Shown here: one piece after another, positions 578-24,813 of the stretch
How positions within the stretch are numbered: the first letter of the stretch is position 1
Layout: each line of letters begins with the position of its first letter
Position numbers and translations under genes: made by a program
Virus record (IMG/VR): IMGVR_UViG_3300016484_000453
Span: 1-24,813 of that record
Strand: one strand, 5' to 3'
Length of the DNA stretch: 24,813 nt
Source of the DNA: a virus
Taxonomy: Duplodnaviria > Caudoviricetes
The notes under the pieces: generated by a model
The model's input: only the letters and a program-made list of their open reading frames with translations
Told to the model about the DNA's origin: nothing
The model's database searches: none

Positions 578-1342
578 ATGGTTACAACTAGTTTAGGAGG
601 TGGATTAGGAAATTACTTATTCCAAATAGCTTCAGCTTATTCTTTAGCATTAGATAACGGTGATGAATGTGTTTTTGATATGGATAATAGTGTTAAAGTT
701 CATAAACATATAAGTACTTATGAAAATAATATTTTAAGAAATATTAAATTCAATAATTTTGATGTTAAAAACGAATATAATGAACCATATTTTCATTATA
801 ATAAAATACCTTACTTAGAAAATATTAGATTAAACGGCTATTTCCAAAGTGAAAAGTATTTTAACCATAATAGAGATAAGATATTAGACCTATTCTCAAT
901 AAGTGAAGAATGTAATAAATACATACAAGATAAGTACGGTGAGATATTGAAAGAAGATACTTGTTCGATACATGTTAGACGAGGTGATTATTTAAACCTC
1001 CAGAACTTTCACCCACTTTGTGAATTGGATTACTATGAAAAAGCTATTAAACAATTCCCAGTAAACACTAAATTTTTGGTTTTTTCTGACGATATTGATT
1101 GGTGTAAAAAGTCATTTAAAGATAATAACTTCATCTTTATTGAGGGTAATAAAGATTATATCGATATGTGGGTAATGTCTTTATGTAAAGATAATATTAT
1201 ATGTAATAGTACTTTTAGTTGGTGGTCAGCTTATCTAAATAAAAATAAAAATAAAAAAGTGGTAGCACCTAACAAATGGTTTGGTGATTTATTAAACCAC
1301 GACACAAAAGATTTAATTCCAGAATCATGGGTAAAGATGTAA
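578..1342 (+). CDS. GT11 alpha-1,2-fucosyltransferase-like (possibly colitosyltransferase)
   Basis: GT11 hallmark motifs GGLGNYLFQ, GYFQSEKYF, SIHVRRGDY, FSDDIDW, NSTFSWW. Confidence 0.92.
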   Translation: MVTTSLGGGLGNYLFQIASAYSLALDNGDECVFDMDNSVKVHKHISTYENNILRNIKFNNFDVKNEYNEPYFHYNKIPYLENIRLNGYFQSEKYFNHNRDKILDLFSISEECNKYIQDKYGEILKEDTCSIHVRRGDYLNLQNFHPLCELDYYEKAIKQFPVNTKFLVFSDDIDWCKKSFKDNNFIFIEGNKDYIDMWVMSLCKDNIICNSTFSWWSAYLNKNKNKKVVAPNKWFGDLLNHDTKDLIPESWVKM

Positions 1343-2028
1343 AATTTTCTATAGTAATACCTACTTACGAGTACAAAGGTTTGGCTCCAGAATTATTAAC
1401 TAAATTATTAAAAAGTATTCGTAAACAAACATATACTAATTATGAAATAATAATTTCAGACCATAGTAAAACTAATTTAGTTTTTGATTTTATAAAAACT
1501 TTTGATTTCGATATAACCTACTATAAAAATGAAAGAGGTATTGGTAACAGCTCAATTAACATGAACGAGGGTATAAAAAAATCTACAGGTGATTTTATTA
1601 AAATTATGCATATGGACGATTGGTTTTCAAATGAAAACACTTTAAGTTTAATTAACGAACATATAAATAATAATCCAGACAAGAAGTGGGGTGGTGTAGG
1701 ATTTAACCATTTCTATGAATCCACAAAAATTACTGATAGATTCATAATGCCTACAATAAATAACGATATTAGGACTTTACTTGGTTGTCCTAGTGTATCA
1801 TTCTTTATTAACAATAAAGAAAATCCAGATTTATTTGATGAGAATCTTATAATAATAAATGATTCTGATATGCATATTAGGTTAGGTAAAAAATACGGAG
1901 ACCCTATTATGGTAAATGAATATTGTGTAACTATAAGAATGTCTGACAATCAAGTATCAAACCAAGTTACAGAAGAACAACACTTAAATGAAATAACATA
2001 TTATAAAAACAAAAATTTTAATGGATAA
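1327..2028 (+). CDS. Glycosyltransferase family 2 (GT-A)
   Basis: FSIVIPTY, SIRKQTYTNYEIIISDHS, NMNEGIKKSTGDFIKIMHMDD, GCPS; classical GT2 N-terminal fold. Overlaps upstream gene by 16 nt. Confidence 0.88.
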   Translation: MGKDVKFSIVIPTYEYKGLAPELLTKLLKSIRKQTYTNYEIIISDHSKTNLVFDFIKTFDFDITYYKNERGIGNSSINMNEGIKKSTGDFIKIMHMDDWFSNENTLSLINEHINNNPDKKWGGVGFNHFYESTKITDRFIMPTINNDIRTLLGCPSVSFFINNKENPDLFDENLIIINDSDMHIRLGKKYGDPIMVNEYCVTIRMSDNQVSNQVTEEQHLNEITYYKNKNFNG

Positions 2029-2704
2029 ATTAACTGAATTAGCAAATAAATATGCATCAGACAAAGGTACTGTTGCACCTTCTAACGGTCACCATGGACC
2101 TAGATTACATTTCACACCTAAATACTACCCTTATTTTGAACCTTTATCAAACCAGGAAATAAAATTATTGGAGATAGGTGTAGGGAGTGGTCCATCATTA
2201 AAAATGTGGTATGACTTCTTCCCTAAAGCAAATATTTTTGCTATAGACATTTCCGACCAAACACCACATGAAAATGAAAGAGTTAAAACTTTCATTTGTG
2301 ACCAATCTAAAAGAGAAGATTTAGAAAATGTCGTTAAAAATACTGGTAAATTAGATTTAATAATTGATGATGGGTCACATGTAATAGATCACCAACAAAT
2401 TAGTTTAGGTACATTATTTAAACATGTAGTCTCTGGTGGTCAGTACTGGATCGAGGATTTACATACCTCTGATAAATCTGTTTGGCAAGGTAAAGATTTG
2501 TACGGTTATGATATGTCATTTAATGACGGTGAATCTACTGTAGAGGTTATTGAAAATTATATGAAAACAAAAATTTTTAATAGTCCATTTTTAACAGTAG
2601 AAGAAAATCAGTATTTAACTGATAATATAGATGATTGTATTATGTATGACTTACCTGAAACTTTTTACGGTTTTAATAAATTGTGTTTATTTACTAAAAA
2701 ATAA
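2021..2704 (+). CDS. Class I SAM-dependent methyltransferase, deoxysugar O-methyltransferase-like (MycE/ElmMI type)
   Basis: SDKG, LLEIGVGSGPSLKMW (motif I), AIDI, CDQS, DLIIDDGSH, IEDLHTS match the metal-dependent sugar O-methyltransferase family. Confidence 0.8.
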   Translation: MDKLTELANKYASDKGTVAPSNGHHGPRLHFTPKYYPYFEPLSNQEIKLLEIGVGSGPSLKMWYDFFPKANIFAIDISDQTPHENERVKTFICDQSKREDLENVVKNTGKLDLIIDDGSHVIDHQQISLGTLFKHVVSGGQYWIEDLHTSDKSVWQGKDLYGYDMSFNDGESTVEVIENYMKTKIFNSPFLTVEENQYLTDNIDDCIMYDLPETFYGFNKLCLFTKK

Positions 2705-2707
2705 AAT

Positions 2708-3634
2708 ATGAAAATATTAATTACTGGTGGTGCTGGTTTTATTGGTACTAAAATATCTGAAAAATTAAAAGATAATAATGAAATAATCATCTTAGACAAT
2801 TTATCAGAACAAATACATGGTAAAACCCCTATTTTATTAGAAGGTGTTAATTATGTAATTGGTGATGTTAGAAATTATAATGACTGGATTAAAGCACTAT
2901 CATTTAATCCAGAAATAATTTTACATTTAGCTTCTGAAACAGGTACTGGACAATCTATGGAAGAAGTTAACATGTATACCACAACTAATATTGATGGTAC
3001 TGCTATAATGTTAGAATTAATTAATAGTGGTAATTACGATGTTAAAAAGGTGATATTAAGTTCATCTAGAGCGGTTTATGGTGATAATGAAAATTCAGAA
3101 TCTAATTATAACTTAAACCCTAAATCTGTTTATGGTGTTACTAAATTAACCCAAGAGTTATTGATAAAAACATCTTGTAAAATACCATACACAATACTTA
3201 GATATCAAAATGTATACGGTGATGGACAAAGTTTAAAAAATCCTTATACAGGTATCATAAGTATTTTTAGTAATAAATTTAAAAATAATGAAGATATTAC
3301 TATATATGATAATGGTAAACCTACTAGAGATTTTATTTATGTAGAAGATATTGTAAATATCACAATTGAATGTATGACTAATAATAAATCTAATTATAAT
3401 ACATATAATGTTGGTACTGGTATGGAGACACCTATTATTCAGGTTACTGAAAAATTAAAATCACTACTTAATAGTGAATCTAAAATAATAATAACAGATT
3501 ACCACAGAGAAGGTGATATTATGTTTGCTAAAGCGGATATAACAAAATTAAAAACAGATTTTAACACACCTATAAAATATAGTATAGATTATGGTTTAAA
3601 TAGATTTGTAGAATGGTTCAAAAAAAATAATTAA
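2708..3634 (+). CDS. NAD-dependent nucleotide-sugar epimerase/dehydratase (WbiB-like extended SDR)
   Basis: TGGAGFIG Rossmann motif, SSRAVYG, YGVTK catalytic YxxxK; LSEQIHG, ETGTGQSM and GQSLKNPYTGI recall the WbiB-type 4-epimerase subfamily. Confidence 0.88.
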   Translation: MKILITGGAGFIGTKISEKLKDNNEIIILDNLSEQIHGKTPILLEGVNYVIGDVRNYNDWIKALSFNPEIILHLASETGTGQSMEEVNMYTTTNIDGTAIMLELINSGNYDVKKVILSSSRAVYGDNENSESNYNLNPKSVYGVTKLTQELLIKTSCKIPYTILRYQNVYGDGQSLKNPYTGIISIFSNKFKNNEDITIYDNGKPTRDFIYVEDIVNITIECMTNNKSNYNTYNVGTGMETPIIQVTEKLKSLLNSESKIIITDYHREGDIMFAKADITKLKTDFNTPIKYSIDYGLNRFVEWFKKNN

Positions 3635-3635
3635 A

Positions 3636-4475
3636 ATGTATTATATTGTAGGTAAAAAAAATAAAGAAGGTACTGTAACTAGTGATACTGAACGTGGTAA
3701 CCTTAACGAATATTTTGAACTAGGATGGGAATATGCGGTAACACATCTTTATATTAAACATTTATATGTCTTAAATGAACTAAAAAATGATGATATAATT
3801 GTTACATTAAAGGATAGAATGTTTCTTTATGAAGGTTTTTGGCATAATGTAATGTCATATGAAGAGTTTATCACATTAGATGTAGATTCTAACGTTATTG
3901 ATTTATGTGACAAAGCCGAAAAAGAAAGATCTGGTATGATACCTAGAATAGTTAATGGTGAGTATGAATTTTTAGAGAGTGATTTAGAAGTTATAAAAAA
4001 AATAAATTTTACAGACATAACACATTTACCAATAACTGAGAATTATTGTTGCATACATATTAGATTTAGAAAATATGCTAACTACCGAAATTTAAGTAAA
4101 GATGGTTGGTTAGACATAATTAATAAATTAAAATTTAAATATAGTAAAATTTTTATTTTTGGTAAGGATACTGAAAATTTTTGTGATGGTGAAAATATTA
4201 TAAATGTTAACCTTAATGAATATGCGTCTTTATTAAATGGTAAAAATTGTAAGTTTTTTGTTGGGACAATGTCTGGTGGGTCTTTAATTGCACAATTAAT
4301 GTCTAATAAAGATTGTGTTAATAATATTATTATAACAGATCAGAAAACACAGAATGAGTTTGAGACAAAGGATGAATATCAGATTTTTTACCACTCAGAA
4401 GCATTTAATTTTTCTAAAACACCCATATATTATATAAAATATGGTGAATTAAATAATTTCATTAATAACTTATAA
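3636..4475 (+). CDS. Hypothetical protein, possible divergent GT-B glycosyltransferase
   Basis: 279 aa ORF tightly packed in the operon; CIHIRFR..RNL and FFVGTMSGGSLIAQL resemble GT-B C-terminal donor-binding motifs (HxR; GxxSGxxHxA). Confidence 0.5.
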   Translation: MYYIVGKKNKEGTVTSDTERGNLNEYFELGWEYAVTHLYIKHLYVLNELKNDDIIVTLKDRMFLYEGFWHNVMSYEEFITLDVDSNVIDLCDKAEKERSGMIPRIVNGEYEFLESDLEVIKKINFTDITHLPITENYCCIHIRFRKYANYRNLSKDGWLDIINKLKFKYSKIFIFGKDTENFCDGENIINVNLNEYASLLNGKNCKFFVGTMSGGSLIAQLMSNKDCVNNIIITDQKTQNEFETKDEYQIFYHSEAFNFSKTPIYYIKYGELNNFINNL

Positions 4476-4476
4476 T

Positions 4477-5742
4477 ATGACAGAACAAATATATGATTAC
4501 CTAATATTAGGTGCAGGTATTACTGGTGTCGCGGCCGGTAGAAGATTACAACAGTTAGGTAATAATAATTTTTTAGTTTTAGAGGGTGAAAATGAATCTG
4601 GAGGTCTTTGTAGGACTAAAGTTGTTGATGGACATTATCTAGATATAGGTGGTGGTCACGTACTACACTCAAAATTTGATGATGTCCTTGATTGGGTGTT
4701 CGAACATATCCCAAAAGAGGATTTTAACAAGTATGATACTAAAGTATTAATTGATTTAGAAGGCCATGCGGTACAATTCCCTATAGAACTCAATTTATGG
4801 CAATTACCTACTGATTTACAAGTTGACTACCTATATTCATATCTTAATGCGGCTAGTAAAGATATTAAATACGAAAATTTTGAATCATGGATAAGAAATT
4901 ATCTTGGTGACAAAATAGCTGACAATTATATGATACCATATAATAAAAAATTATGGTGTATGGATATAAGTAAATTAAACACTGATTGGTTAATTAAAAT
5001 TCCAGAAACAGACATAAAATTAGTTTTAAAATCTATAATAGAACGTGATTCTAATTTCACTGAAAAAGTTGTTAGTCATAAATCATTCTATTACCCTAAA
5101 TACGGAGGATTTCAATCAGTATTTGACGCAATTAAAAAACCTATAGAAGAGAATATTAAATTAAATTTTAATATAGAAAAATTGAGGTACGACTCAAAAA
5201 CTAAACTATGGCATGTAAATGAAACTTATGTCACTAAAAAAATTATTAATACAGTTCCTTGGACATTATTAAAAATAGAGATAGAGGGTTTTGATTATGA
5301 TAGTGAATTTAAAAATCTAGAATATCTTAGTGATGTAATATCTTTATGGCAACGTGAACATTATGAACATGACGCTCATTGGAAATATATCCCAAGTGAC
5401 GATGTTGAACAACATAGAGAATTTTATATACATAATTTTGCTCCTTATAGTAAAAAGGGTGGTGTTATGACTGATATTAATAGATTAAGATGGTTAGCTA
5501 ATGATAAAAAATGGAAAGCCGGTAAACCACTATATGAACATGAAAATATATATTCATACCCATTACCTACTAAAATATATAAAGATTCTATGAGAAAAAT
5601 TTTAGATTTTTCTAAAGATTATAATTTATATGGTTTAGGTAGATGGGGTCAGTGGCAATACTTCAATACAGACCAATGTATTAAACAAGTCCTAGATTTT
5701 TTTGAAAATGAAGACGATTTTGATTATTTTAAAATATTTTAA
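4477..5742 (+). CDS. FAD-dependent oxidoreductase, UDP-galactopyranose mutase/HemY-like family
   Basis: ILGAGITG, E..SGGLCRT, DIGGGHVLHS, PYNKKLW, FYYPKYGGF, YSYP, GLGRWGQWQYFNTDQCI. Confidence 0.78.
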   Translation: MTEQIYDYLILGAGITGVAAGRRLQQLGNNNFLVLEGENESGGLCRTKVVDGHYLDIGGGHVLHSKFDDVLDWVFEHIPKEDFNKYDTKVLIDLEGHAVQFPIELNLWQLPTDLQVDYLYSYLNAASKDIKYENFESWIRNYLGDKIADNYMIPYNKKLWCMDISKLNTDWLIKIPETDIKLVLKSIIERDSNFTEKVVSHKSFYYPKYGGFQSVFDAIKKPIEENIKLNFNIEKLRYDSKTKLWHVNETYVTKKIINTVPWTLLKIEIEGFDYDSEFKNLEYLSDVISLWQREHYEHDAHWKYIPSDDVEQHREFYIHNFAPYSKKGGVMTDINRLRWLANDKKWKAGKPLYEHENIYSYPLPTKIYKDSMRKILDFSKDYNLYGLGRWGQWQYFNTDQCIKQVLDFFENEDDFDYFKIF

Positions 5743-5744
5743 AT

Positions 5745-6674
5745 ATGATTGGTAATAGAAAAATTTTAATCACAGGTGGTTCTGGATTAGTTAGTAATTA
5801 TTTAAAAAAAATTCTTCCAGAGGCTACATATGTTTCTTCAAAAGACTTTGATTTAACAGACCAAAATCAAGTAATTAAAATGTATGAAGAAATAAAACCA
5901 ACACATGTAGTACATTTAGCTGCCAGAGTAGGTGGGATTTTTGATAATATATACCACCCTTCCGAATACTTTGAGGAAAATGTTTTAATGAATACTTTTA
6001 TGGTTAAATACGCTAGAGAGTTTGGTGTGGATAGATTTTTAGGTGTGTTAAGTAGTTGTATATTTCCTGATGTTGTTGAACATTATCCTATGAGTGAAGA
6101 CGACCTTCACCTTGGGCCCCCTACAAAGACTAATTTTTCATATGGTATGGCAAAAAGAGCTTTAGCTGTACAAATAGAGGCCAGTAATGAAGAACACGGC
6201 ACAAAATATAATTATATATCACCATGTAATTTATACGGTGAATCCGATAAAGACGAGGAGACAAAAAGTCATTTTGTGACATCGTTAATTAAAAAAATAT
6301 ATTTAGCTAATACTAATAACGATGATAGTATAACTTTATATGGTGACGGAACCCCATTAAGACAATTTATGCATGCTAGTGATGTGGCTAATATTATAAA
6401 AATAATATTAGATAAAGATATTACTGATTCATTTAATTTAGCTACGAGAGAAAATGTTAGTATAACAGATATTGCCAAAATAGCTTTAGATTCTACAAAT
6501 TCAAACCATTTAAAAATTTTATACGATAAAACAAAACCAAACGGTCAATTAAGAAAAGATTTAAGTATTGATAAGTTAAATAAATTAATACCTAATTATA
6601 ATTTTATATCTCTAAGTGAAGGTATATCAGATTATTATAAAAAATATAAAGAATACAATGATAAAATTAGTTAA
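5745..6674 (+). CDS. fcl: GDP-L-fucose synthase / GDP-colitose synthase (ColC)-like epimerase-reductase
   Basis: ITGGSGLV, HLAARVGGI, LSSCIFP, YGMAK, PCNLYG, SHFVTSLIKK, GDGTPLRQF, KPNGQLRK. Confidence 0.9.
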   Translation: MIGNRKILITGGSGLVSNYLKKILPEATYVSSKDFDLTDQNQVIKMYEEIKPTHVVHLAARVGGIFDNIYHPSEYFEENVLMNTFMVKYAREFGVDRFLGVLSSCIFPDVVEHYPMSEDDLHLGPPTKTNFSYGMAKRALAVQIEASNEEHGTKYNYISPCNLYGESDKDEETKSHFVTSLIKKIYLANTNNDDSITLYGDGTPLRQFMHASDVANIIKIILDKDITDSFNLATRENVSITDIAKIALDSTNSNHLKILYDKTKPNGQLRKDLSIDKLNKLIPNYNFISLSEGISDYYKKYKEYNDKIS

Positions 6675-7806
6675 TGATACAATAAATAAAGAAGACATAA
6701 ATAGTCTAATAGATTGGTTGTCACAAGAAGAAACACCTAGATTAACCAAAGGTGAACTCACATGGGAATTAGAAAAAAAATGGGCCAAAAAAATGGGTAC
6801 AAAGTATTCGGTATTTGTTAACTCAGGGTCTTCCTCAATATTATTAACTTTAGCAACATTAAAGGAAACTAATCGTTTAAAAAACCTTAAAATAGTTGTA
6901 CCAGCACTAAGTTGGGCGACTGATGTTAGTTCACCTATGTTGTTGGGTTATGATACTATAATGTGTGATTGTAATTTAGAAGATTTATCTTGTGATTTAA
7001 ATCATTTGGAAGAGTTATTTAAACAACACAACCCATCAGTTTTTATACTTGTTTCACCACTAGGGTTAGTACCTAGAATGGATAAGGTTATTGAATTGTG
7101 TAATAAATATGATGTTATTCTTTTGGAAGATGTATGTGAGAGTATGGGGTCTAAGTTTGATGGTAAATATTTGGGGTCTTTTGGTTTTGCTTCATTTTTT
7201 TCAATGTACTTCGGACATCATTTATCTACCATTGAAGGTGGTTTTATTAACACAAATGATGAGAAATTTTATCATGAATTATTAATGATGAGAAGTCATG
7301 GTTGGGATAGGGATTTACCTGAAGAAATTCAAAAGGAACTTAGAGTGAAACATAATTGTTCTGATTTTGATGCTTTATATAATTTCTATCTACCAGGTAT
7401 GAACGTTAGAGCGACAGATTTACAAGCATTTATAGGTTTAAGGGCTATAGATAAATTAGACACCTACTCAAATAAAAGAAGAGATAATTTTTTCTTTTAT
7501 AAAGAAAATTTAAAAAACAATCAATTAAAGTTAATAGAACATGAAGGTGATTTTGTATCTAGCTTCGCTATACCAGTAATTACTGAGAAAAGAAATGATA
7601 TTGTATTAAAATTACAAAATTCTGGTATTGAGGTTAGGCCATTAATTGCCGGTAATATGGCAAATAAACCTATGTGGAAAGGTAATAAAGAAAATTTACC
7701 TAACTGTGAATTAGTAGATAAATATGGGTTTTACTTACCTAATCACCAGGATTTAACAAAAGAAGATATTTTAAAAATAACTAATATATTAAATATTGAA
7801 TATTAA
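6658..7806 (+). CDS. colD: PLP-dependent DegT/DnrJ-family enzyme, GDP-4-keto-6-deoxymannose 3-dehydratase (ColD)-like
   Basis: FVNSGSS, LLEDVCESMG, FSMYFGHHLSTIEGG (His where aminotransferases have the Schiff-base Lys), RSHGWDRDLP, EVRPLIAGN. Start placed at ATG 6658 (MIKLVNDTI) rather than the track's GTG at 6616. Confidence 0.8.
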   Translation: MIKLVNDTINKEDINSLIDWLSQEETPRLTKGELTWELEKKWAKKMGTKYSVFVNSGSSSILLTLATLKETNRLKNLKIVVPALSWATDVSSPMLLGYDTIMCDCNLEDLSCDLNHLEELFKQHNPSVFILVSPLGLVPRMDKVIELCNKYDVILLEDVCESMGSKFDGKYLGSFGFASFFSMYFGHHLSTIEGGFINTNDEKFYHELLMMRSHGWDRDLPEEIQKELRVKHNCSDFDALYNFYLPGMNVRATDLQAFIGLRAIDKLDTYSNKRRDNFFFYKENLKNNQLKLIEHEGDFVSSFAIPVITEKRNDIVLKLQNSGIEVRPLIAGNMANKPMWKGNKENLPNCELVDKYGFYLPNHQDLTKEDILKITNILNIEY

Positions 7807-7808
7807 TA

Positions 7809-8786
7809 ATGAAAAAAGCGTTAATAACGGGAATAAATGGCCAAGACGGTTCTTATCTTGCAGAATTTTTATTAAAAAAAGGTTATGAAGTTTGGGGTAC
7901 TGTTAAAAGAAACTCAGTGTCGGAAACACAATCTGTTAGAATCGACCATCTGCTTGGGGAAATAAATTTAGAGTATGCTGATTTAACTGATATGGCATCA
8001 CTAATAAGGGTTTTACAAAAAGTAAAACCAGATGAGATATATAATTTAGCTGCACAATCACATGTTAGGATTAGTTTTGACCAACCGATATATACAGCAA
8101 ATGTTACTGGTATTGGTACATTAAATATGTTAGAGGCAGTTAGGATGGTATCACCACAATCTAAAGTATATCAAGCCTCATCATCAGAAATGTTTGGTAA
8201 TAATATTGACCCTGACGGGTATCAAAGAGAAACAACCCCAATGAATCCAGTATCACCTTATGGATGTGCTAAAGTGTTTTCATATAATATTTGTAAAAAT
8301 TATAGAAATTCATACGGAATGAATATATGGAATGGGATTTTGTTTAATCACGAATCACCAAGACGAGGAACAAACTTCGTAACTAACAAAGTTGTTAAAG
8401 CAGCAGTTAGGATTAGTTTAGGGTTACAAGATAAATTACATATAGGTAATTTATCCGCAACACGAGACTGGGGTCATGCTAAAGATTATGTTGAGGCAAT
8501 GTGGTTAATGTTACAATCAGATAAACCAGACGACTATGTTTGTTCAACTGGGATATCTCATTCAGTGAAAGATTTGTGTGAATACACATTTAGTTCATTA
8601 GGTCTAAATTATTTAGATTACATTGTTGTTAACGAAAAACATTTTAGACCTGAAGAATTGGAGAATTTAAAAGGAGATTCATCAAAATTAAGAAATGAGC
8701 TACTTTGGCAACCCAAGTACACATTTGAATCGATGATAGATGAAATGATTGAATACTGGGTAAAATTTTACGATAATGAAAAATAA
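7809..8786 (+). CDS. gmd: GDP-mannose 4,6-dehydratase
   Basis: ALITGINGQDGSYLAE, YNLAAQSHV, YQASSSEMFG, SPYGCAK, GILFNHESPRRG, RDWGHAKDYV. Confidence 0.97.
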   Translation: MKKALITGINGQDGSYLAEFLLKKGYEVWGTVKRNSVSETQSVRIDHLLGEINLEYADLTDMASLIRVLQKVKPDEIYNLAAQSHVRISFDQPIYTANVTGIGTLNMLEAVRMVSPQSKVYQASSSEMFGNNIDPDGYQRETTPMNPVSPYGCAKVFSYNICKNYRNSYGMNIWNGILFNHESPRRGTNFVTNKVVKAAVRISLGLQDKLHIGNLSATRDWGHAKDYVEAMWLMLQSDKPDDYVCSTGISHSVKDLCEYTFSSLGLNYLDYIVVNEKHFRPEELENLKGDSSKLRNELLWQPKYTFESMIDEMIEYWVKFYDNEK

Positions 8787-9555
8787 TCTTATAAAGGCTA
8801 AAACTTTCGGTTCACTAGACCATGATATGTACTTCAATACAGATGTTAGTATTTCTTTTGATACATTAGAACATTCTAAAACATCTAATATAAAAGTTTT
8901 GGTACAAATAGAACCACCAGAAATACAAGATCAAAAAAAAATTTTTATAGAAAACCATAAAATATTTGATTTAATTTTAACATGGGATGAAGATATTTTA
9001 GATTCTTGTGATAATGCTAAAAAATTTATTTTTGGTACGTGTTGGATAGACTTTGATTCTTTTAAACCTAATAAAAGAAATAAAATATCATTTATTTTAT
9101 CTAATAAAAATTATGCCCCAGGTCACATATTGAGACATGGAGTATGGGGTTATTTGTCAAATAAAACAAGTATTAATAATTTTGAGTTATTAAAAATAAT
9201 GACACCACCTAGAATCGAAAGTAAAAATATTCTATTTGAAGATTCAAAATATCATATAGTAATCGAAAACTGTTCTAGAAAGAATTGGGTTACAGAAAAA
9301 TTAATAGACTGCTTATCTACTAAAACCATACCGATATATTGGGGGTGTTCTAATATAGGTGAAATCTTTAACGAAAAAGGTATTATAAAATTTAAAAATA
9401 TAGATGAATTAAATTTTATATTAGAAACTTTAGATATGGATTTTTATGAGAAATCAATTAATGTTATAGAAGAGAATTATGAAAAATCTAAAGAATACTT
9501 TGATTTTTATGGTAGAATAACTAATGAAATAAATAAATATATATTAAAAAAATAG
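8776..9555 (+). CDS. GT10 alpha-1,3-fucosyltransferase-like glycosyltransferase
   Basis: KYHIVIENCSRKNWVTEKLIDCLSTKTIPIYWG is the GT10 alpha-1,3-FucT motif (YxFxxxxEN...YxTEK...PIYxG). Confidence 0.82.
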   Translation: MKNNLIKAKTFGSLDHDMYFNTDVSISFDTLEHSKTSNIKVLVQIEPPEIQDQKKIFIENHKIFDLILTWDEDILDSCDNAKKFIFGTCWIDFDSFKPNKRNKISFILSNKNYAPGHILRHGVWGYLSNKTSINNFELLKIMTPPRIESKNILFEDSKYHIVIENCSRKNWVTEKLIDCLSTKTIPIYWGCSNIGEIFNEKGIIKFKNIDELNFILETLDMDFYEKSINVIEENYEKSKEYFDFYGRITNEINKYILKK

Positions 9556-9556
9556 T

Positions 9557-10309
9557 ATGGTCAGAAAAAAAGGTAAAATTAATACTCAGGAGGCTTATGA
9601 CGAGTATTTAAACAATGACTCAATCAATAAAGAATTTGGTTCATATAAAACTGTTAAATTATCAGATAAACAATACGAACTTTTTAATGGTATAAAAAAT
9701 TCTAGAATTTCTACTATTGTCGGTCCTCCAGGTACATCGAAAACTTTTACAGCTTGTTGGGCGGCGGTTAAAGCTTTACAAAAAGGTGAAATTAAAAGAA
9801 TTGTTTTGGTTAAACCGTTAGAGACTTCTGGTGAAGATTTAGGGTTTCTACCTGGGTCTGAAAAAGATAAAGTACAACCATTTATGGAATCCTTCCTAGA
9901 TAACTTAATTGAAATGATGGACGGTAGAACTCTTAAAATGTTAATAGATAATGGTACAATTAAGTTTGAACCTATTGCCTATATGAGGGGTCGTACTTTT
10001 AAACATTCATTCATTATTTGTGATGAGATGCAAAACGCTGACATTAAACAATTAATGACAACAATTACTCGTTTTGGTGAAGGTTCTAAAATAACAATTA
10101 TCGGAGATTCAAGACAGAATGATATTAATGAAAAGTATGTGGCCTTAGATTTCTTTGTTAAAGAAATTTTAGGTGAAGACGACCAGATGTTCCATTTTAG
10201 ATTTGATAGGGATGATATAGTTAGAGACCCATTACTTATTAAGATTATAGATAATTACGAAAAAGCTTTGGCTGACGGACGTATACCTAATACTAAAAGA
10301 AAAAATTAA
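9557..10309 (+). CDS. phoH: PhoH-family ATPase
   Basis: GPPGTSKT Walker A variant, LGFLPG, AYMRGRTF, ICDEMQN, TRFGEGSK, GDSRQND, DIVRDPL. Confidence 0.95.
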   Translation: MVRKKGKINTQEAYDEYLNNDSINKEFGSYKTVKLSDKQYELFNGIKNSRISTIVGPPGTSKTFTACWAAVKALQKGEIKRIVLVKPLETSGEDLGFLPGSEKDKVQPFMESFLDNLIEMMDGRTLKMLIDNGTIKFEPIAYMRGRTFKHSFIICDEMQNADIKQLMTTITRFGEGSKITIIGDSRQNDINEKYVALDFFVKEILGEDDQMFHFRFDRDDIVRDPLLIKIIDNYEKALADGRIPNTKRKN

Positions 10310-10311
10310 TT

Positions 10312-10461
10312 ATGGACAATTACCATCTAATGAATAGATTTGGTGAAACCATCAAACAATTAAAAGCTAGTAATATTGAGGAGGCTATTGAACTATTCTC
10401 ACAAATAAAAAATCTTGATAAAAAAGAATTACTTAAAATTTATACTGTTATAAAAAAATGA
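10312..10461 (+). CDS. Small hypothetical protein (49 aa), missing from the ORF track
   Basis: ATG 2 nt after the phoH stop; MDNYHLMNRFGETIKQLKASNIEEAIELFSQIKNLDKKELLKIYTVIKK; its TGA overlaps the next ATG (ATGA), filling the gap exactly. Confidence 0.75.
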   Translation: MDNYHLMNRFGETIKQLKASNIEEAIELFSQIKNLDKKELLKIYTVIKK

Positions 10462-11159
10462 AAATAGGATTATCAATAGACGGTGTTTTACGTGACCTTT
10501 TTGGTAAAATAGAGGACACACACCAAAAATATTTCCCACCTGAAAATGAAAATGAAGACGGGATTAAAATTTTAGATTATGAGTTTGATAAATGGTTACA
10601 CTTCCCAGAAGAAGAAACTAAACAAGCTGAGTTAGAGTTTAACCCAGATTTTGAAGAGTCCTCTTTTATGGAAGAGGAACAAACAATAGACTTTGTAAAA
10701 ACAAAAACTAAGGTAACAGTAGAGGAATTTCTTTATGAAAAATGTACATTAGAAATATTTGGTTATGCCGGAGAATCTACTAACTCAGTAGTTGAGAGCC
10801 TTAATCAATTAATTTTAGAAAACCCAAACCATGAATTTATTCTATTAAGTCGTGAAATAGGGTTATCGATCCCATCGACACTTTTCTTTTTATCTAAAAC
10901 AAAATGTATGTGTCAAAATATAAAATTTGTTTTAGATAATGAATCTGTTTGGGATCATGTGGATGTTATGATAACAGATCACCCAAAAATTATTACAAGT
11001 AAACCAGAGAATAAAGTTTGTGTTAAAGTAGAAAAAGATTTTAATAAATTATTAACACAATCAAATATTGTTATCAAATCAATTAAAGAATTAGATTCAA
11101 CATCCTTAAACTCAATAGAAAATATTTTAACAAATGGTAAGGGAGAATGGACTCTATAA
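10458..11159 (+). CDS. HAD-superfamily 5'(3')-deoxyribonucleotidase-like protein with degenerate motif I
   Basis: MKIGLSIDGVLRD (cf. IxxDxDGVLxD), FILLSR (motif II), DVMITDHP (motif IV). Confidence 0.6.
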   Translation: MKIGLSIDGVLRDLFGKIEDTHQKYFPPENENEDGIKILDYEFDKWLHFPEEETKQAELEFNPDFEESSFMEEEQTIDFVKTKTKVTVEEFLYEKCTLEIFGYAGESTNSVVESLNQLILENPNHEFILLSREIGLSIPSTLFFLSKTKCMCQNIKFVLDNESVWDHVDVMITDHPKIITSKPENKVCVKVEKDFNKLLTQSNIVIKSIKELDSTSLNSIENILTNGKGEWTL

Positions 11160-11195
11160 AGTTTACATCTGTAAAATTATGATTAATTATTAACT

Positions 11196-11537
11196 ATGGA
11201 AGGATTATTTAAAATAGCTAAAGAAGAGTTTTATTTTGATATAGATAAAATATCTGATTACATAAGAATTGACGGGTCAGTAGACCAACTTTTTCAAAAA
11301 CCTTTATTAGTTGAGAACGAAGAGGATGGTGAAAATGAGGTAGGTCAACAAGACCACCAATTAATCGATGTTGCTAAATGGGAAATCATTAAAGCAATGA
11401 CTGATACAGTATTAAATGAAAACGGTGTTATAGACGAATCTATGGGTATAACGAAATTGGGTGACCAATTGTCAATACCTTTTAGACTGGCATTTAACAC
11501 ATTATTAAAACATAAAATTATAAAGAAAAATGGATAA
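11196..11537 (+). CDS. Hypothetical phage protein
   Basis: 113 aa acidic ORF ending SIPFRLAFNTLLKHKII, overlapping the next gene; no function recognisable. Confidence 0.75.
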   Translation: MEGLFKIAKEEFYFDIDKISDYIRIDGSVDQLFQKPLLVENEEDGENEVGQQDHQLIDVAKWEIIKAMTDTVLNENGVIDESMGITKLGDQLSIPFRLAFNTLLKHKIIKKNG

Positions 11538-12630
11538 TAAAGAAGAAATCGTAAAATCTCTTACGGAGAATTTAGGGAAAATGGAGAATAAAGACTTCGC
11601 AATTTATTTTTTTGTTATTGACACTAAAGGGTCACCTGTTGGCTCAGTTTCTAACATCTACGAACACGTTAAAGTTTTAAATGAATTGGGTTATAAAGCC
11701 TTTGTTTTACACGAAAAAAATGATTACAAAGATAATCAAATTAACTACATTAAAGGTTGGTTAGGTGAAGAATACGGTAATTTACCACACGCTTCTATCG
11801 AAGACCAGTCTATCAAGGTAACACCAACAGATTTTGTTATCATACCTGAATTATTTGCTAATGTAATGGAACAAACGGCTAAATTACCCGCTAAAAGAGT
11901 TGTATTGTGTCAGGCTTATGATTACATCACAGAAACTTTACAACCAGGTAAAGGGTGGAGAGATTACGGTATTACAGATTGTATTACAACAACTGAACCA
12001 CAAAAAGTTTATATTGAAAGTTTATTCAACGGAACGGTAAAAACTAGTGTTATTCCAGTTAGTGTAGACGATACATTTGCTAAACCTAAAAAACCTAAAA
12101 AACCTATCGTAGCTATTTTTACTAGAGACCAAAGAGACACAGTAAAGATATTTAAAACTTTTTATTTAAAATACCCACATTTAAAATGGGTCACTTTTAG
12201 AGATATGCGAGGTATGTCTAAAGATTTATTTTCTAAAGCTTTAGCTGAATCTTGTGTTTCTGTTTGGGTTGACGATGTTGCTGGATTTGGTGGGTTCGCT
12301 ATTGAATCTATGAAATGTGGTACACCAGTTATTGGTAAAATTCCTAATCTACTTAATGGTTGGATGACTGATAAAAATGGTATATGGGTTGACAGTATTA
12401 ATGCTATTCCAGAGATTTTATCTAAATACTTACAAGCTTGGTTAGAAGATAACCATCCAGAAGAATTATTTGAAAGTATGGAAGAGACTGTGAATAACTT
12501 TACACCAGAAATCCAAAAACAAAAAATTCAGGAAGTTTACGGCGAATTGTTTACCAACAGAACAAATGAATTTGTTGAAGCTTTAAAAAAATATGAAGAA
12601 AATAATGTTGAAGAAAAAATTAATGAATAA
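11530..12630 (+). CDS. GT-B glycosyltransferase (GT4-like)
   Basis: IYEHVKVLNELGY, DFVIIPE, and AGFGGFAIESMKCGTPVIG (GT4 EGFGxxxxEAMxxGxPV motif). Confidence 0.78.
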   Translation: MDNKEEIVKSLTENLGKMENKDFAIYFFVIDTKGSPVGSVSNIYEHVKVLNELGYKAFVLHEKNDYKDNQINYIKGWLGEEYGNLPHASIEDQSIKVTPTDFVIIPELFANVMEQTAKLPAKRVVLCQAYDYITETLQPGKGWRDYGITDCITTTEPQKVYIESLFNGTVKTSVIPVSVDDTFAKPKKPKKPIVAIFTRDQRDTVKIFKTFYLKYPHLKWVTFRDMRGMSKDLFSKALAESCVSVWVDDVAGFGGFAIESMKCGTPVIGKIPNLLNGWMTDKNGIWVDSINAIPEILSKYLQAWLEDNHPEELFESMEETVNNFTPEIQKQKIQEVYGELFTNRTNEFVEALKKYEENNVEEKINE

Positions 12631-13442
12631 TGGAAAGTAATTTAACAGTAATATTACCAGTTGTAACACTTAATGAGGAAGAAAAAAATCTTTTTGCTAA
12701 TGCTATTGGTAGTGTTAGAGAACAAAAAGTTTTACCTACTAAATTGTTAATAGTAATCCCAAAAAACGGGGATTTGAAAAAAGAATTAGAATCTTATGAT
12801 TTTGGAGATAAGCTCTCTGAAATAGTATCAATTGTTGAAAATGATGGTGAAACAGATTTTTGTTCACAAATTAACTTTGGTGTAAACAAGACAGAAACAG
12901 AATGGTTTTCGATTTTAGAATTTGATGATGTATACTCTAATATCTGGTTTGATAATTTCGTTACATATAAGAATAGTTACGAAGATGTAGATGTATTTTT
13001 ACCAATAGTATTAGACGTGAATACTGATAACCAATTCATTCACTTTACAAACGAACCTGTATGGGCAAAAGACTTTTGTGAAAATATGGGATTCTTAGAT
13101 AATGACGCTTTATTGAACTTCCCTAATTTCCAAATTTCAGGGTCTGTAATTAAGAAAGATGTATTTACTGGTGTTGGTGGTTTAAAAGGAAATGTTAAAA
13201 TGTTCTTTAACTACGAACTTCTTTTAAGAATGAGTTATTATGATAAGAAAATTATGGTAATCCCTAAAATTGGGTACAAAAAAGTTAATATGAGACCTGA
13301 TTCATTGTTTTGGAGATACAAAAATGTTCAAGGAGAAATTATTGACCCTAATGAATCTAGATTTTGGTACAATACGGCTAGAAAAGAATGTTATTTTAAA
13401 ACTGATAGAGGTATAAAATATGATGTTGAAAATGTTGCTTAA
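12630..13442 (+). CDS. GT-A glycosyltransferase (GT2-like)
   Basis: LTVILPV, AIGSVREQ, QINFGVNKTETEWFSILEFDD (ExDD), YELLLRM; TAATG coupling to upstream gene. Confidence 0.8.
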   Translation: MESNLTVILPVVTLNEEEKNLFANAIGSVREQKVLPTKLLIVIPKNGDLKKELESYDFGDKLSEIVSIVENDGETDFCSQINFGVNKTETEWFSILEFDDVYSNIWFDNFVTYKNSYEDVDVFLPIVLDVNTDNQFIHFTNEPVWAKDFCENMGFLDNDALLNFPNFQISGSVIKKDVFTGVGGLKGNVKMFFNYELLLRMSYYDKKIMVIPKIGYKKVNMRPDSLFWRYKNVQGEIIDPNESRFWYNTARKECYFKTDRGIKYDVENVA

Positions 13443-21183: not shown

Positions 21184-21215
21184 AAAAAGGGGGGTTTAAA
21201 TACTCCTTTTTTTTT
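21182..21215. terminator. Bidirectional intrinsic terminator (imperfect stem)
   Basis: A7-GGGGGGTTTAAATACTCC-T9 between convergent stops; stem has a G-U pair and a mismatch. Confidence 0.7.
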
Positions 21216-22254
21216 ATTTAGAAAAATCGTTTAAAATATTACCAGTTTCATCAAATAAAACCCATACACCTAGATTAACGTATTGTTCTACTTCTTCTAT
21301 TGAATAATCTATTTCAGTATTACCTAAATTAAGAATAACATTATCACCCTCTATTCTATCCACTAACCAATAAGAATACAGATTATTATATCTGATAGGG
21401 CCCAAATCAACGTCACCTCTTTTAAGTTGAGAGATGGAAAGATTATATTCTTCTTCTAATTCATCTAAATTATTTTCTCTATAAGTACATTTTTTACCTA
21501 TAATATCATTAATTGTAAAAATAACTTCACCTCTAGCCCAGTCAAAATCGTCTTCTTCGGATTCATTTAGGTATTCAAAATATGGTTCTGTAGCTTTTTT
21601 ATAAACACCGTTATTATGTTCATCCTCTTCAGTGAAGAATACTGTTTCATCGTCATGAAAAGTATTTGGAGCAATACTTTTTATAGTGTAAATTTTACCA
21701 GGTTTATATGCTGCACCACCATATTCAGGATTAATAGACCGACTAACCCTACTAAAACCATTTTTACAGATAAATTTATCCCCTACTTTTGGTTCCCATT
21801 TGTCTGAAATATCATTTATCCAACTAAAGTCGTCATCTTGGGATTCATTTAAATCTAAATAAATGTTTACCCACCCAAAGTAAGATTTAATATAATCATA
21901 AACTTCATTTAAAGATTTAAATGTTTTTATGTTTGTGTTTTTGATGTCCCCATATATAGATGATCCTGTTTCATTTATAATTAATTTTAAGGGGTATTCT
22001 TTATAATATAACTCCATCCCAACAGTAGAACCTTCTTCAGGTGTACTCCAGTCATAAACTATAAATATGTGATCTTTAGATTCGTCAAAATCATACTTCA
22101 AATTATAACTTGAGTAATCTTGACTAGCCAAATCTAATTTAGTTTTAATCTCATCTAATTCATATAAAAAACTCAACACATCCCCAACAGGATCCATCTC
22201 ATCCACCCAATCAAAATCATCGAGTTCTTCTCTTATTATTTTTTTAAGATTCAT
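21214..22254 (-). CDS. Acidic three-module protein with repeated (I/L)xE-x-DDFxW linkers, possible head-packaged polyprotein
   Basis: IIREELDDFDW (aa 6-16), LNESQDDDFSW (aa 135-145), LNESEEDDFDW (aa 229-239) separate three unrelated ~95-130 aa segments. Confidence 0.8.
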   Translation of the reverse strand: MNLKKIIREELDDFDWVDEMDPVGDVLSFLYELDEIKTKLDLASQDYSSYNLKYDFDESKDHIFIVYDWSTPEEGSTVGMELYYKEYPLKLIINETGSSIYGDIKNTNIKTFKSLNEVYDYIKSYFGWVNIYLDLNESQDDDFSWINDISDKWEPKVGDKFICKNGFSRVSRSINPEYGGAAYKPGKIYTIKSIAPNTFHDDETVFFTEEDEHNNGVYKKATEPYFEYLNESEEDDFDWARGEVIFTINDIIGKKCTYRENNLDELEEEYNLSISQLKRGDVDLGPIRYNNLYSYWLVDRIEGDNVILNLGNTEIDYSIEEVEQYVNLGVWVLFDETGNILNDFSK

Positions 22255-22272: not shown

Positions 22273-23994
22273 TTATTTTAAAATTAATTCATATTTAAAT
22301 AAACCACAATCCCATATTCTGTCATACCCCAGATTCTTTATCATTTGCCATTCTGTTAATGACTTATCGAAATTATATTTTTTAATTAAATTTTTCTTAC
22401 TCATTCTAAATTTATGGAATCTATCATTGGTGTTACTTTTTTTGAAATAAAAATAACTTTGTTTAGAATTACCTAAATAATTAAAACCTAGTTTAGTGTA
22501 TAAATTATTATTATGTGTTAAAGTCCATCTTCTATCAGCAAAACTTATTACTTTATGTGGGTTATATTCTTTTATAAATTGTTTTAACATTTTATTAGCT
22601 AAACCACTAATAACGTAATTATGATTGGTGGCAAATCTATTTAAAACAAAAATATTTTTATCATTTTTAGCGTTATTCATACCCCTATTATTTGAAAAAC
22701 ACATAACACCTACAAGTTCATCATTATAGTAGGCACCATAACTTATAGGTGATAAATCTTCACCTTGTATATGGTATTGATTTAAAAAATCATTTTTCAA
22801 ATGAAAATCAACCTTTTTTATAGTACATTTTCTCGCACCAATTTTAGTGGAATTAGATTTATTTAGAATATGTTTTAATTTTTCCTTAACTAAATCCTTT
22901 TTTGTTAACCATTCATCTGAAAAAATATGTATAAGTTTATATCCAGCAAAATTCATTAATAACGTTTTATTTAGATGGTAATTTAGGTCCTTACCACCAA
23001 AGTCTTCTGAATGCCATAGGATACCATTATATTCAATGGCTATTTTTAATTCAGGTATTATTATATCAATTTCCTTACCCTTTAAAATTTTTCTATCATT
23101 TGTAATAACTTCCGACCCTAAATTTCTTATAAATTCAACCAATTCTGTCTCTTCTTTGGACACACTTGAATATTTTATAACATGTTCATTGTTATATATT
23201 GCCTTTTCACTTAAATAATGTGATATACTATTTGACACTATTTTTGGGTTTCCGTATAACTCAACATATTTTTTCATTGTTATGTTATGAGTATTTTTTA
23301 AATGGGTATTAGTTATCATACCAAACTTTTCACCACATATTTCACAAGTAACAGAATTATCATCATTAGAGAGATATTCATATCTTTTAACTCTTTCTAC
23401 ATGGTTTTTATGTAATATAGAATCTTCAGGAAAATCATTTAAATATTGGTCTAAAGTTTTATTGTGAGTAACTTTTAAATGGTTTTCATAATAACCACTT
23501 TTATTATCTATATCTATGGTAGACCATTCACAATACCTACATTTCCTAACAGGTTTTTGTTCAATATCAATTTCCATTAGATTAAAGAAATTTTCGTGCC
23601 AATATTTACCAGTAGTTTTAAATAACATATTTCTTTTATATTGACTAGGTATAATTGTGTCTTTAAAATTATCCTTTATATGTAATATAAGTGTACCAGA
23701 TTTATTACTATAGTCATTATAAACTTTACCCGTAACTTTACAAATGGCTATAATTTTTTTATTTTTTGATGATAAAGTATTATCAATTTCTTCCTGATTA
23801 AATATTTTTTCTGAGTATTTTTTTTGGCCACCTTTTTTATTAATCTCTACACCATTATCCTTTAGTATTGTAGAGATTTTTTTATGACCCATATTAAACA
23901 TCTTACCTAATTCATGTGTACTAGGTACTGTTTTTGTAACATACAATTCTATTATTTTATTTATTATTTCTTTTGTTAAAACACTTTTTTTCAT
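22273..23994 (-). CDS. Free-standing homing-endonuclease-like protein (HTH + C2H2 zinc fingers + PD-(D/E)xK/Vsr-like nuclease + GNAT-like domain; Hef-like)
   Basis: STHELGKMFNMGHKKISTILK (HTH); CRYC..HLKVTH and CEICG..HLKNTH (C2H2); SKEETEL..EIDIIIPELKIAIEYNGILWHS..LIHIFSDEW (nuclease); ARKC..FLNQYHIQG..LNRFA..GLANKML..SFADRRW..LYTKLGF..IWDCG (GNAT-like). Confidence 0.82.
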   Translation of the reverse strand: MKKSVLTKEIINKIIELYVTKTVPSTHELGKMFNMGHKKISTILKDNGVEINKKGGQKKYSEKIFNQEEIDNTLSSKNKKIIAICKVTGKVYNDYSNKSGTLILHIKDNFKDTIIPSQYKRNMLFKTTGKYWHENFFNLMEIDIEQKPVRKCRYCEWSTIDIDNKSGYYENHLKVTHNKTLDQYLNDFPEDSILHKNHVERVKRYEYLSNDDNSVTCEICGEKFGMITNTHLKNTHNITMKKYVELYGNPKIVSNSISHYLSEKAIYNNEHVIKYSSVSKEETELVEFIRNLGSEVITNDRKILKGKEIDIIIPELKIAIEYNGILWHSEDFGGKDLNYHLNKTLLMNFAGYKLIHIFSDEWLTKKDLVKEKLKHILNKSNSTKIGARKCTIKKVDFHLKNDFLNQYHIQGEDLSPISYGAYYNDELVGVMCFSNNRGMNNAKNDKNIFVLNRFATNHNYVISGLANKMLKQFIKEYNPHKVISFADRRWTLTHNNNLYTKLGFNYLGNSKQSYFYFKKSNTNDRFHKFRMSKKNLIKKYNFDKSLTEWQMIKNLGYDRIWDCGLFKYELILK

Positions 23995-24105
23995 TAGGAT
24001 TAAAATTAAATGGTTTATTAAAATAAATATAAGTATAATAGGATTAAAATTAAATGGTTTATTAAAATAGATTTTAATTTTTAGGATTAAAATTAAATGG
24101 TTTAT
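23995..24105 (-). repeat. Three direct repeats, 24-nt core ATAAACCATTTAATTTTAATCCTA (minus strand), period 43-44 nt
   Basis: Exact core copies at 23995-24018, 24039-24062, 24082-24105; the first two extend to 31 nt identity; the last-transcribed copy abuts the endonuclease ATG. Confidence 0.95.
24023..24030 (-). promoter_or_regulatory. Putative late promoter motif ATATTTAT embedded between repeat cores
   Basis: Minus strand, 28 nt before ATG 23994, between two repeat cores. Confidence 0.45.
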
Positions 24106-24135
24106 ATTTTAAGTAAAAAAAAATTTTATAAAATG

Positions 24136-24164
24136 AAAAGGGGGACCGAAATCCCCCTTTTTTT
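24136..24164 (-). terminator. Intrinsic terminator of the major capsid gene
   Basis: Minus strand AAAAGGGGGA-TTTCGG-TCCCCCTTTT followed by CATTTT, 25 nt after the capsid stop; T-tract also on the plus side. Confidence 0.88.
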
Positions 24165-24189
24165 AATTAAAATGATGTTTTTCAACAGA

Positions 24190-24813
24190 TTATCTCAATT
24201 CTCTAACATCAAATGTACGTAAACCGTCTACACGGATATGTCCATAGAAGCGGTTGTTAACCATCTTCTTAGCATATCTCGTCATTATACCCTTAACTGG
24301 TACGAAGTTAAACGGGTTATACATTGTAGGTGTTAATTGTAGAGGTACATACGGAGCGTAGATGTAACCTGTATCTAACAATGATTTACCTTTGTGACCA
24401 ATCAAAATTGAATATGCTGGTGCGTAAGGGTCACGGTAGATAGTGTAACGTCCTTGTAAAGAACCTACTCTTTCGATACCCATGTTATACTGATCTTGTT
24501 CAGGAGATGCGTTAGATACGTGGAAGTATTCTAAATCGTCAAATACTGCAGATACTTCAGAAGAAACAACAACCCAGTTAGCTCCACCTCTCAATGTAGA
24601 TTTGTGGATTTGTGCTGAAATTTGGTTAACAGCAGTCATTAACGTTTGGTTCCACTCTTTTTGAGTATAAGCTGTAGATTGAGGAAGTCTTTTCCATCCG
24701 TTGTAATCCCAACGTAATTGCCATGCTGCACCTTTACGTAAGTCAATTAAAATTTCACGGTCAATTTCTGCTGCCACTTACTCAGATAATAAAGCTGTTA
24801 ATTCAGCTTCAGC
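24190..24813 (-). CDS. Major capsid protein, T4 gp23-like (C-terminal part; runs off window; in-frame TAA at 24778-24780)
   Basis: AEAELTALLSE*VAAEIDREIL, TLRGGANWVVVS, GRYTIYRDPY, GYIYAPYVPL, GIMTRYAKKMV are gp23-family hallmarks. Confidence 0.93.

Follow-up and report, generated by a model that had tools for sequence, protein, structure and literature searches.

Three identical 24-nt repeats stand directly before the gene for a free-standing Hef-like homing nuclease in the stretch of viral DNA analyzed here (24,813 nucleotides, referred to below as the window), and we read them, with a probability of roughly three in four, as autorepression operators of the I-TevI type that would reveal the target of the nuclease in the adjacent major capsid gene, at or beside which the enzyme would cut. 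The idea that these operators mimic the target was put forward in an earlier sequence-only reading of this DNA, has a published precedent in I-TevI, and now finds strong computational support. Specifically, the motif is confined to the nuclease family, it lies at a promoter-like box, and a profile derived solely from upstream DNA finds the capsid codons YNPFNFxP.

Repeat array and predicted promoter

Followed along the minus strand, the 3′ part of a gp23-like gene gives way to a hairpin, the three cores and the ATG of the 573-aa gene. The features are as follows:

24190..24813, minus strand: 3′ portion of the major capsid gene (T4 gp23-like), truncated where the contig ends (PF07068, E=3e-38; phrog_138)
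24297..24321, minus strand: predicted recognition site within the gp23-like gene, at codons Y-N-P-F-N-F-V-P, which the operator profile scores above every window position other than the repeats
24136..24161, minus strand: intrinsic terminator-like hairpin 3′ of the capsid gene, separating it from the nuclease promoter; 11 pairs, 5 of them G-C
24082..24105, minus strand: operator-like copy 1 (24-nt core), upstream of the predicted promoter; family profile score 26.0 bits
24039..24062, minus strand: operator-like copy 2, covering the positions 19-23 nt upstream of the TATATTTA box
24023..24031, minus strand: TATATTTAT box, a phage promoter-like element resembling the Bacteroidota −7 box TAnnTTTG
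23995..24018, minus strand: operator-like copy 3, abutting the ATG and covering the inferred transcription start and leader
22273..23994, minus strand: 573-aa Hef-like nuclease with an N-terminal helical (HTH-like) part, zinc-finger/MucR-like modules, a Vsr-like nuclease and a Mom-like GNAT

The layout of the array is as it had been noted from the letters alone: the copies are spaced 43 and 44 nt apart, they bracket ATATTTAT (24030-24023, between copies 2 and 3), and the third ends one base before the nuclease ATG at 23994. The array is also reproduced in contigs from independent runs, with 0 differences over approximately 23995-24068 in X3 record 17 and X6 record 26, and 2 differences in X10 record 9. 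Spacings of 43/44, 33/44 and 43/43 across three arrays are consistent with helical phasing, which these three cases can only suggest. The terminator-like hairpin has an expectation of 0.1 in shuffled sequences. In the capsid gene itself, an in-frame TAA at 24778-24780 replaces a codon that is Q in relatives; contig depth (the contigs being those of relatives) is nearly all G at 24780, and this TAA is probably an assembly error near the contig end and not recoding.

With respect to transcription, the ATATTTAT box would serve as the nuclease promoter, judging by its match to the Bacteroidota −7 consensus TAnnTTTG (given in the available text of PMC9723704), and we infer Bacteroidota as the host phylum. 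The same box lies at most 60 nt upstream of 57 of the 254 ORFs in genome G001 and 53 of the 278 in G002, an enrichment before the genes of related phages, and it also precedes 4 of the 9 other window genes examined. A −33 element, expected 19-23 nt upstream of the box, would fall within copy 2. A sigma-70 scan returned 2 sites against 3.6 expected, and zero at the repeats. A search of sequencing runs listed no RNA run with this DNA, a result that does not bear on expression.

Several other features of the window were recorded alongside the array. A TTTG-N20-TAAGTTTG element (20280-20220) precedes the plus-strand gene at 20247; it fits the Bacteroidota −7 consensus and hints at the host phylum. 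Positions 1-13442 contain a PhoH-like gene and an extended series of genes apparently for sugar modification (glycosyltransferase-like, NAD-dependent epimerase-like, GDP-mannose dehydratase-like and aminotransferase-like), as judged by eye from the translations. A shared N-terminal peptide such as MNLKKIIREELDDFDW or MKNLIKKILKEEFDW begins several genes, including those at window 21214-22254, L081:2058-3137 and L296:7496-8689.

Distribution of the motif across nuclease homologues

The searches provided 174 usable nuclease loci, 115 of them distinct, with six others dropped for want of an intact frame; 86 homologues, the window excluded, had a readable upstream region. The motif was found upstream of 66 of these 86, as a single reverse copy in 62 and in forward orientation in 4. 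The 20 regions without it include some that are truncated, some that carry the shifted motif described below, and some with neither (e.g. L142, L168, L082 and L083). At the loci without this nuclease, the motif was found in the 200 nt after gp23 at none of 67 (best score 3.5 bits). A TAnnTTT(A/G) or ATATTTAT box follows 61 of the 62 reverse operators, at a distance of 24-25 nt in 36, and 30 of the 62 reverse copies terminate in TTTG or TTGA. The motif is kept between proteins that are only 45-50% identical, and the DNA flanking it is unalignable. Because the loci are kin, these counts overstate independence, and it is the genome-wide ranks given in the next section that carry weight rather than the counts.

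The triplication is a trait local to one small clade and not family-wide, triple forward arrays occurring only in the clade of the window (L081/L172 and L093, 68-69% identical). A search of viral contigs for the exact tandem pattern gave just one more array, so triplication is rare. In L093 the copies sit in a tandem unit that includes the promoter box, which indicates that triplication arose by local duplication.

Homologues beside non-capsid genes (L085, L088-L090 and the paralogues of G002 and G003) are too few per locus for a profile. The Hef-like paralogues elsewhere have other N-terminal domains (L277:15249-16865 in G002 and L296:10270-11724 in G003), and the former comes after a gene resembling a tail tube protein. 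Four homologues of approximately 40% identity (L038, L082, L083 and L084) lie behind gp23 in the opposite, convergent orientation; L038 retains a motif of the shifted type, and none was seen at L082 or L083.

Predicted recognition site in the capsid gene

The operator profile was built from 41 unique upstream sites with the window repeat as seed, and no capsid DNA was used in making it. In a scan of the window, the capsid site followed directly after the three repeats with 13.1 bits, compared with 8.7 bits for the next hit. In two genomes that have no such gene at gp23 the result was clearer still: the YNPFNFxP codons ranked 1 of 643,590 positions in G001 (27.4 versus 14.4 bits), and the capsid site ranked 1 of 545,780 in G003 (24.7 versus 15.3 bits). 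In the carrier G002 it ranked 2, behind that genome's own operator (29.1 versus 12.3 bits). Column-shuffled profiles, 40 per genome, reached maxima of 22.7 and 22.0 bits. When full capsid genes were scanned, the top hit was the capsid site in 67 of 67. The nine copies of the window's clade, used alone as a profile, again gave the top place to that site in all 67, with ranks of 12 (G001), 2 and 1 in the genomes.

For 48 of 77 carriers, as opposed to 0 of 65 controls, a blind best match between each upstream region and its own whole capsid gene lay 50-10 nt ahead of the TRY codon. Taken together, the blind match and the genome-wide profile ranks establish that the upstream sequence resembles the predicted target beyond chance. 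The operators of L138 and L149 read Y-N-P-F-N-F-T-P exactly, and variation across the operator columns tracks wobble variation in the target (Spearman 0.53, p=0.007, 24 columns). A hand-loosened pattern search in five genomes was made with the capsid codons in mind; it was not blind and is not counted here.

The direct match of the repeat to the resident capsid gene, from which the sequence-only reading had started, was confirmed by alignment in its particulars. Against capsid positions 24320-24297 the core is identical at 15 of 24 ungapped positions, with both CC pairs retained; six of the nine mismatches fall on third-codon positions, two lie in the V codon, and the ninth is the first base of the next codon. 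As evidence this pairwise score was rejected, since it is at chance level in shuffles: at least 15 identities in the sense strand of the capsid fragment were reached by 20.6% of 5000 mononucleotide-shuffled cores (38.6% on either strand), and the window has 99 other positions at this level or slightly above it, 82 scoring 15/24 and 17 non-repeat positions scoring 16-17/24. The match between repeat and capsid gene gains significance only once relatives are added. The expectation that alleles of relatives would stand closer to the repeat was borne out, as 80 of 80 related alleles match it at 16-21 of 24 positions compared with 15 for the resident, although much of this gap reflects the T-to-V codon of the window lineage, which is common to the non-carriers L001 and L002.

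Carrier and non-carrier alleles

The nuclease gene is optional and patchy, being present at full length beside gp23 in 8 of 80 capsid loci. Among 17 carrier/non-carrier pairs, which were chosen on upstream identity (at least 94.5% alike), most diverge sharply from about −22..+23 to the end of the gene; the close pairs L008/L004, L159/L063 and L167/L047 are 97-100% alike upstream and divergent from this point on. Over the first 30 nt of the site, the 17 pairs average 5.2 mismatches compared with 1.6 in 30 control pairs (counted in both directions), with the controls too diverging further 3′. Sharp divergence extending to the gene end is what would be expected if the capsid 3′ end were co-converted with the nuclease gene. 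Among contigs from other runs, no clean near-isogenic non-carrier allele was found; two contigs that seemed to skip the nuclease gene have a short side of 22-23 letters and were not relied on.

Of 582 positions compared, the two that differ most with carrier status are synonymous bases at the center of the site. TTCAAC is the center of 62 of 67 non-carrier alleles, of 19 of 65 carrier alleles (after two carriers had been dropped for indels) and of 0 of 41 operators, and the difference persists after clustering at 92% (40 of 43 versus 11 of 35). The shift is smaller at other synonymous positions (p 0.0008-0.003), and carriers and non-carriers were not sampled in the same way. The window allele has TTTAAC at its center, and the operators do not extend over the IKG codons.

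These data bear on the earlier claim that the resident allele is recoded and immune, which they support only in part. The center is indeed altered in 46 of 65 carriers, but the carrier-linked change shifts the resident towards the operator, and the profile scores of the two groups are alike (carrier median 26.1 bits, non-carrier 26.9 bits, p=0.52), the window allele scoring just 13.1. Recoding of the resident away from the repeat was thus rejected as a rule for the family. In addition, 11 of 65 carriers keep both TTCAAC and GGT with their catalytic residues intact, and the carrier L098 is identical to the non-carrier L062 from −64 to the gene end, which together indicate that sequence immunity is not the whole story.

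Second register and second nuclease-like gene in the slot

In terms of where cleavage might occur, the more distant homologues provide a candidate region. Upstream of six of them (L148, L156, L171, L204, L038 and L248) stands another motif, a pseudo-palindrome whose alignment to the capsid gene is displaced 12 nt onward, to cover N/D-F-T-P-(R/I)-K-G-I-M. The corresponding feature in the window is the following:

24282..24309, minus strand: capsid stretch N-F-x-P-x-K-G-I-M, overlapping the predicted recognition site; the upstream motif found in more distant nuclease clades matches it, and many alleles are pseudo-palindromic here

A six-site profile of the shifted motif ranks its capsid stretch 1st, 1st, 3rd and 6th (L171 left out) in four genomes, a result that is supportive rather than blind, as the six loci were picked after their alignments had been seen. 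A search with the L171 protein for more loci of this second class returned none that were new. Given that I-Bth0305I is a dimer cutting a pseudo-palindrome (available text of PMC3239194), the break may fall in the P-x-K-G codons, just past the end of the class I operator, with 24282..24309 as the candidate cleavage region.

The same slot is occupied in 28 of 67 other distinct loci (L004:4682-5359 and 27 more) by an unrelated gene of 225-230 aa with an HTH and an HNH-like motif, the HNH label being a by-eye reading of the sequence for which Pfam gave a weak HTH only. A motif found de novo in 24 unique upstream regions of this gene ranks the capsid codons N-N-R-F-Y-G first in 58 of 67 capsid genes and among the top 4 in all; the window equivalent is 24259-24236, and the genome-wide rank is just 24th to 278th. 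This motif is probably a second target mimic, directed at another capsid site. The slot of L001, whose capsid gene is the closest to that of the window (94%), encodes a 471-aa protein in which the HNH-like gene is fused to a clear Mom domain (L001:4706-6118; PF25680, E=1e-19), and Mom domains thus pair with two different nucleases in one slot.

Domains of the nuclease

The 573-aa protein matches the homing endonuclease family phrog_3339 (PHROGs, E=1e-90) as well as PF05443, PF18741 and PF00583, and its nearest named relatives in phage records are annotated as Hef-like. Its C-terminal 300 aa are 34-45% identical to Hef-like proteins of Tenacibaculum, Bacillus and Campylobacter phages. Of 50,697 phage records, 418 contain Hef-like nucleases at E<=1e-5, often with many copies per genome, Campylobacter phage genomes having 10-12 each. 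The gene is free-standing behind a terminator, with a Vsr-like nuclease, and is not of the intron-encoded GIY-YIG kind. Two domains were delimited:

22843..23181, minus strand: Vsr-like (EDxHD-type) nuclease domain, aa 272-384, assigned to the I-Bth0305I catalytic domain 3r3p by HMM and fold
22276..22833, minus strand: Mom-like GNAT domain, aa 388-573, assigned by Foldseek, VIA and hhalign

The nuclease domain matches 3r3p both by HMM (E=1.7e-5) and by Foldseek (rank 1, E=3.9e-5, TM 0.65), with Vsr 1cw0 at Foldseek rank 5. In an alignment of 58 homologues, among the 120 listed, E282, D310, E321, H328, H340 and D360 are invariant in 58 of 58. With respect to the EDxHD motif, E282, D310, N/D323 and H328 are kept; the place of the last D is taken by the invariant H340 or by K343, with D360 further on.

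For the GNAT domain, the first Foldseek hit is Mu Mom (8bv8, E=1e-6). VIA gives Mom a Z of 12.4, tied with other GNATs, yet with the longest alignment (162 residues) among the top rows. H408, R453, D487 and Y499 are invariant in 58 of 58 homologues and align with residues needed for Mom activity, in an hhalign alignment that is weak (E=0.02). Six such residues have been reported, namely H48, Y49, R101, S114, D139 and Y149 (available text of bioRxiv 10.1101/861617, where numbering is 10 lower). Four of the six are thus invariant here; 57 of 58 homologues have I at Mom Y59 (Y49 in the published numbering), and Mom S124 (S114 in the paper) is S in 49 of 58 and N in the window protein. The equivalents of H48 and Y49 were placed by motif, outside the stretch aligned by hhalign. 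At E<=0.01 the Pfam scan gave no Mom hit for the window protein, and a paralogue had one at 27.2 bits, the cut-off being 27.1. Domain and fold searches showed DNA-binding modules in the protein and no RNA-binding guide domain.

Proposed mechanism and alternatives

In the mechanism that we favor, one protein-DNA specificity for a site of approximately 25 bp would be used twice, for homing into gp23 and for autorepression. During co-infection, the nuclease would break the capsid gene of a rival at or beside this site. With the carrier genome as the repair template, the rival would then receive the nuclease gene along with the capsid 3′ end (intronless homing). As the protein accumulates, it would occupy the operators as double-stranded DNA and block its own transcription, and the clade of the window would have tripled its operator by local duplication to obtain a tighter switch. 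Two steps of this scheme are weaker: the operator and resident site may escape cutting because TTCAAC is missing at the center, the neighboring P-x-K-G half is missing, or both; and adenine modification by the Mom-like domain may be a further safeguard.

The nearest alternative is compatible with autorepression and differs in how self would be told from non-self. If that distinction were set by chemistry, the protein would be a one-chain restriction-modification-like enzyme whose Mom-like domain modifies an adenine in the operators and the resident site, whose nuclease cuts unmodified DNA only, and whose repeats are protected loading or control sites. Mom is indeed the top fold hit, the four invariant GNAT residues align with Mom activity residues, carrier alleles score as well as those of non-carriers, the 11 unchanged carriers look unprotected by sequence, and a role of this kind was predicted in 2021 by Iyer for REase-Mom fusions of jumbo phages (available text of PMC7824862). 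We nonetheless consider it unlikely, as Mom Y59 is replaced by I in nearly all homologues and Mom S124 by N in the window protein, Pfam Mom is not reported for the latter at the threshold given above, the GNAT fold could serve DNA binding alone, and the altered center in 46 of 65 carriers suggests selection on sequence. A combination of the two schemes may be entertained tentatively, at odds somewhat worse than one in four being an apt description of our confidence: Hef-like proteins in general would be self-protecting homing nucleases, single chains devoted to one essential-gene site of approximately 25-30 bp, in which the Mom-like domain marks the enzyme's own site and operators and the Vsr-like domain cuts the unmarked site of a rival. 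If true, this would join homing and restriction-modification in one enzyme, and upstream mimics would be a general key to the targets of the large Hef-like family.

The remaining alternatives dispense with homing or with function at the DNA level. Homing-nuclease DNA-binding domains have become the capsid repressor CapR (available text of PMC10448857; see also PMC8096241), and a comparable domesticated protein might, with homing lost, serve as a repressor or roadblock bound to operators and capsid site, the more so as the resident site still scores well in most carriers. This is improbable given that the nuclease residues are invariant, that the gene is patchy (8 of 80 loci), that an unrelated nuclease occupies its slot elsewhere (28 of 67 others), and that the capsid 3′ end seems to travel with the nuclease gene. 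The repeats might instead be a scar devoid of function, left when insertion of the gene copied part of the capsid 3′ end beside it, and tandem-duplicated later; the L093 tandem unit does show local duplication, and an origin of the operator as a copy of target DNA is plausible. We disfavor this reading and regard it as very improbable because the motif is kept across proteins of 45-50% identity while its flanks are unalignable, occurs in both orientations at a fixed distance to the promoter box (36 of 62) with variation that is mostly wobble-equivalent, and has counterparts, the shifted motif of other clades and the third motif of the unrelated nuclease, that point to different capsid stretches. 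The sequence-only reading had raised the further idea of RNA guides or decoys, for which the repeats would be transcribed, as might be thought of target-like tandem copies with spacers adjoining a nuclease. This idea drew no support and is scarcely credible: reverse copies outnumber forward ones 62 to 4, and a guide cannot flip freely; most homologues have a single copy, upstream of the promoter box and downstream of the terminator; the array RNA folds no better than shuffles (z=+0.90) and an Rfam search of it gave nothing that reaches cut-off; and the protein has DNA-binding modules where a guide-type RNA-binding domain was not seen. Autorepression by target-mimic operators, which would also carry the homing specificity, thus stays our preferred reading.

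The practical value of this reading is that a few oligonucleotides would allow direct tests of binding, cleavage, autorepression and the Mom-like role, since the operators define a 25-bp substrate and a candidate position for discrimination, and the natural alleles come in pairs. The role of the Mom-like domain in Hef-like nucleases has so far been a prediction. Moreover, one slot is home to two nuclease families, each apparently with its own capsid site as the model for its mimic. This suggests that self-control of the I-TevI kind is common among free-standing nucleases, and that their targets can be predicted from upstream DNA.

Comparison with known systems

Sandegren reportedly described the Hef free-standing homing endonucleases of T4-related phages in 2005. 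The window gene shares with them its C-terminal homology and its standing as an optional gene beside a conserved target gene, swapping with other nucleases in one slot; it differs in the N-terminal modules of its protein and in its predicted gp23 target. In the literature searched, in which few subscription papers were included, we found neither an operator for a free-standing or Hef-like nuclease nor a target for a capsid-linked Hef-like gene. In 2009, how free-standing nucleases are regulated was said to be unknown (available text of PMC2790892).

The EDxHD homing endonucleases, a family that includes the Hef proteins, have as their prototype I-Bth0305I, which cuts a pseudo-palindrome in a conserved gene (available text of PMC3239194). 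The window nuclease domain matches the 3r3p structure of this enzyme by sequence and fold, but it is internal, with the GNAT following it, the last motif residue is seemingly H rather than D, and the gene is free-standing. Mom, for its part, modifies a loose SASNY consensus genome-wide, and the REase-Mom fusions of jumbo phages are predicted to modify self DNA and cut foreign DNA (available text of PMC7824862, bioRxiv 10.1101/861617 and PMC13219725). The window protein resembles Mu Mom and these fusions in that its GNAT is nearest Mom by Foldseek, keeps four active-site residues and is fused to a restriction-fold nuclease. Unlike Mom, the protein described here, whose modifying activity is putative, yields a comparative signal that leads to a single long site, and its gene behaves as a homing element.

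The closest parallel is I-TevI, which is encoded in the td intron of phage T4 and whose operator is 15/20 identical to its homing site, bound by the enzyme and cut approximately 100-fold less; I-TevII and I-TevIII have putative operators as well, and the available text of this review (PMC2988022) describes none for a free-standing gene. In both systems a degenerate copy of the target overlaps the nuclease's own promoter, which here is assigned by consensus, with identities of 15/20 for I-TevI and from 15/24 to 21/24 here, and the copy is proposed here likewise to be bound and left uncut. Unlike I-TevI, the present gene is free-standing, its product combines a Vsr-like and a Mom-like domain instead of GIY-YIG, its target lies in a capsid gene approximately 300 nt away, and its putative operator occurs in either orientation and in one or three copies. 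The best reading of the window operators is therefore that they would work like the I-TevI switch in the hands of a different nuclease family.
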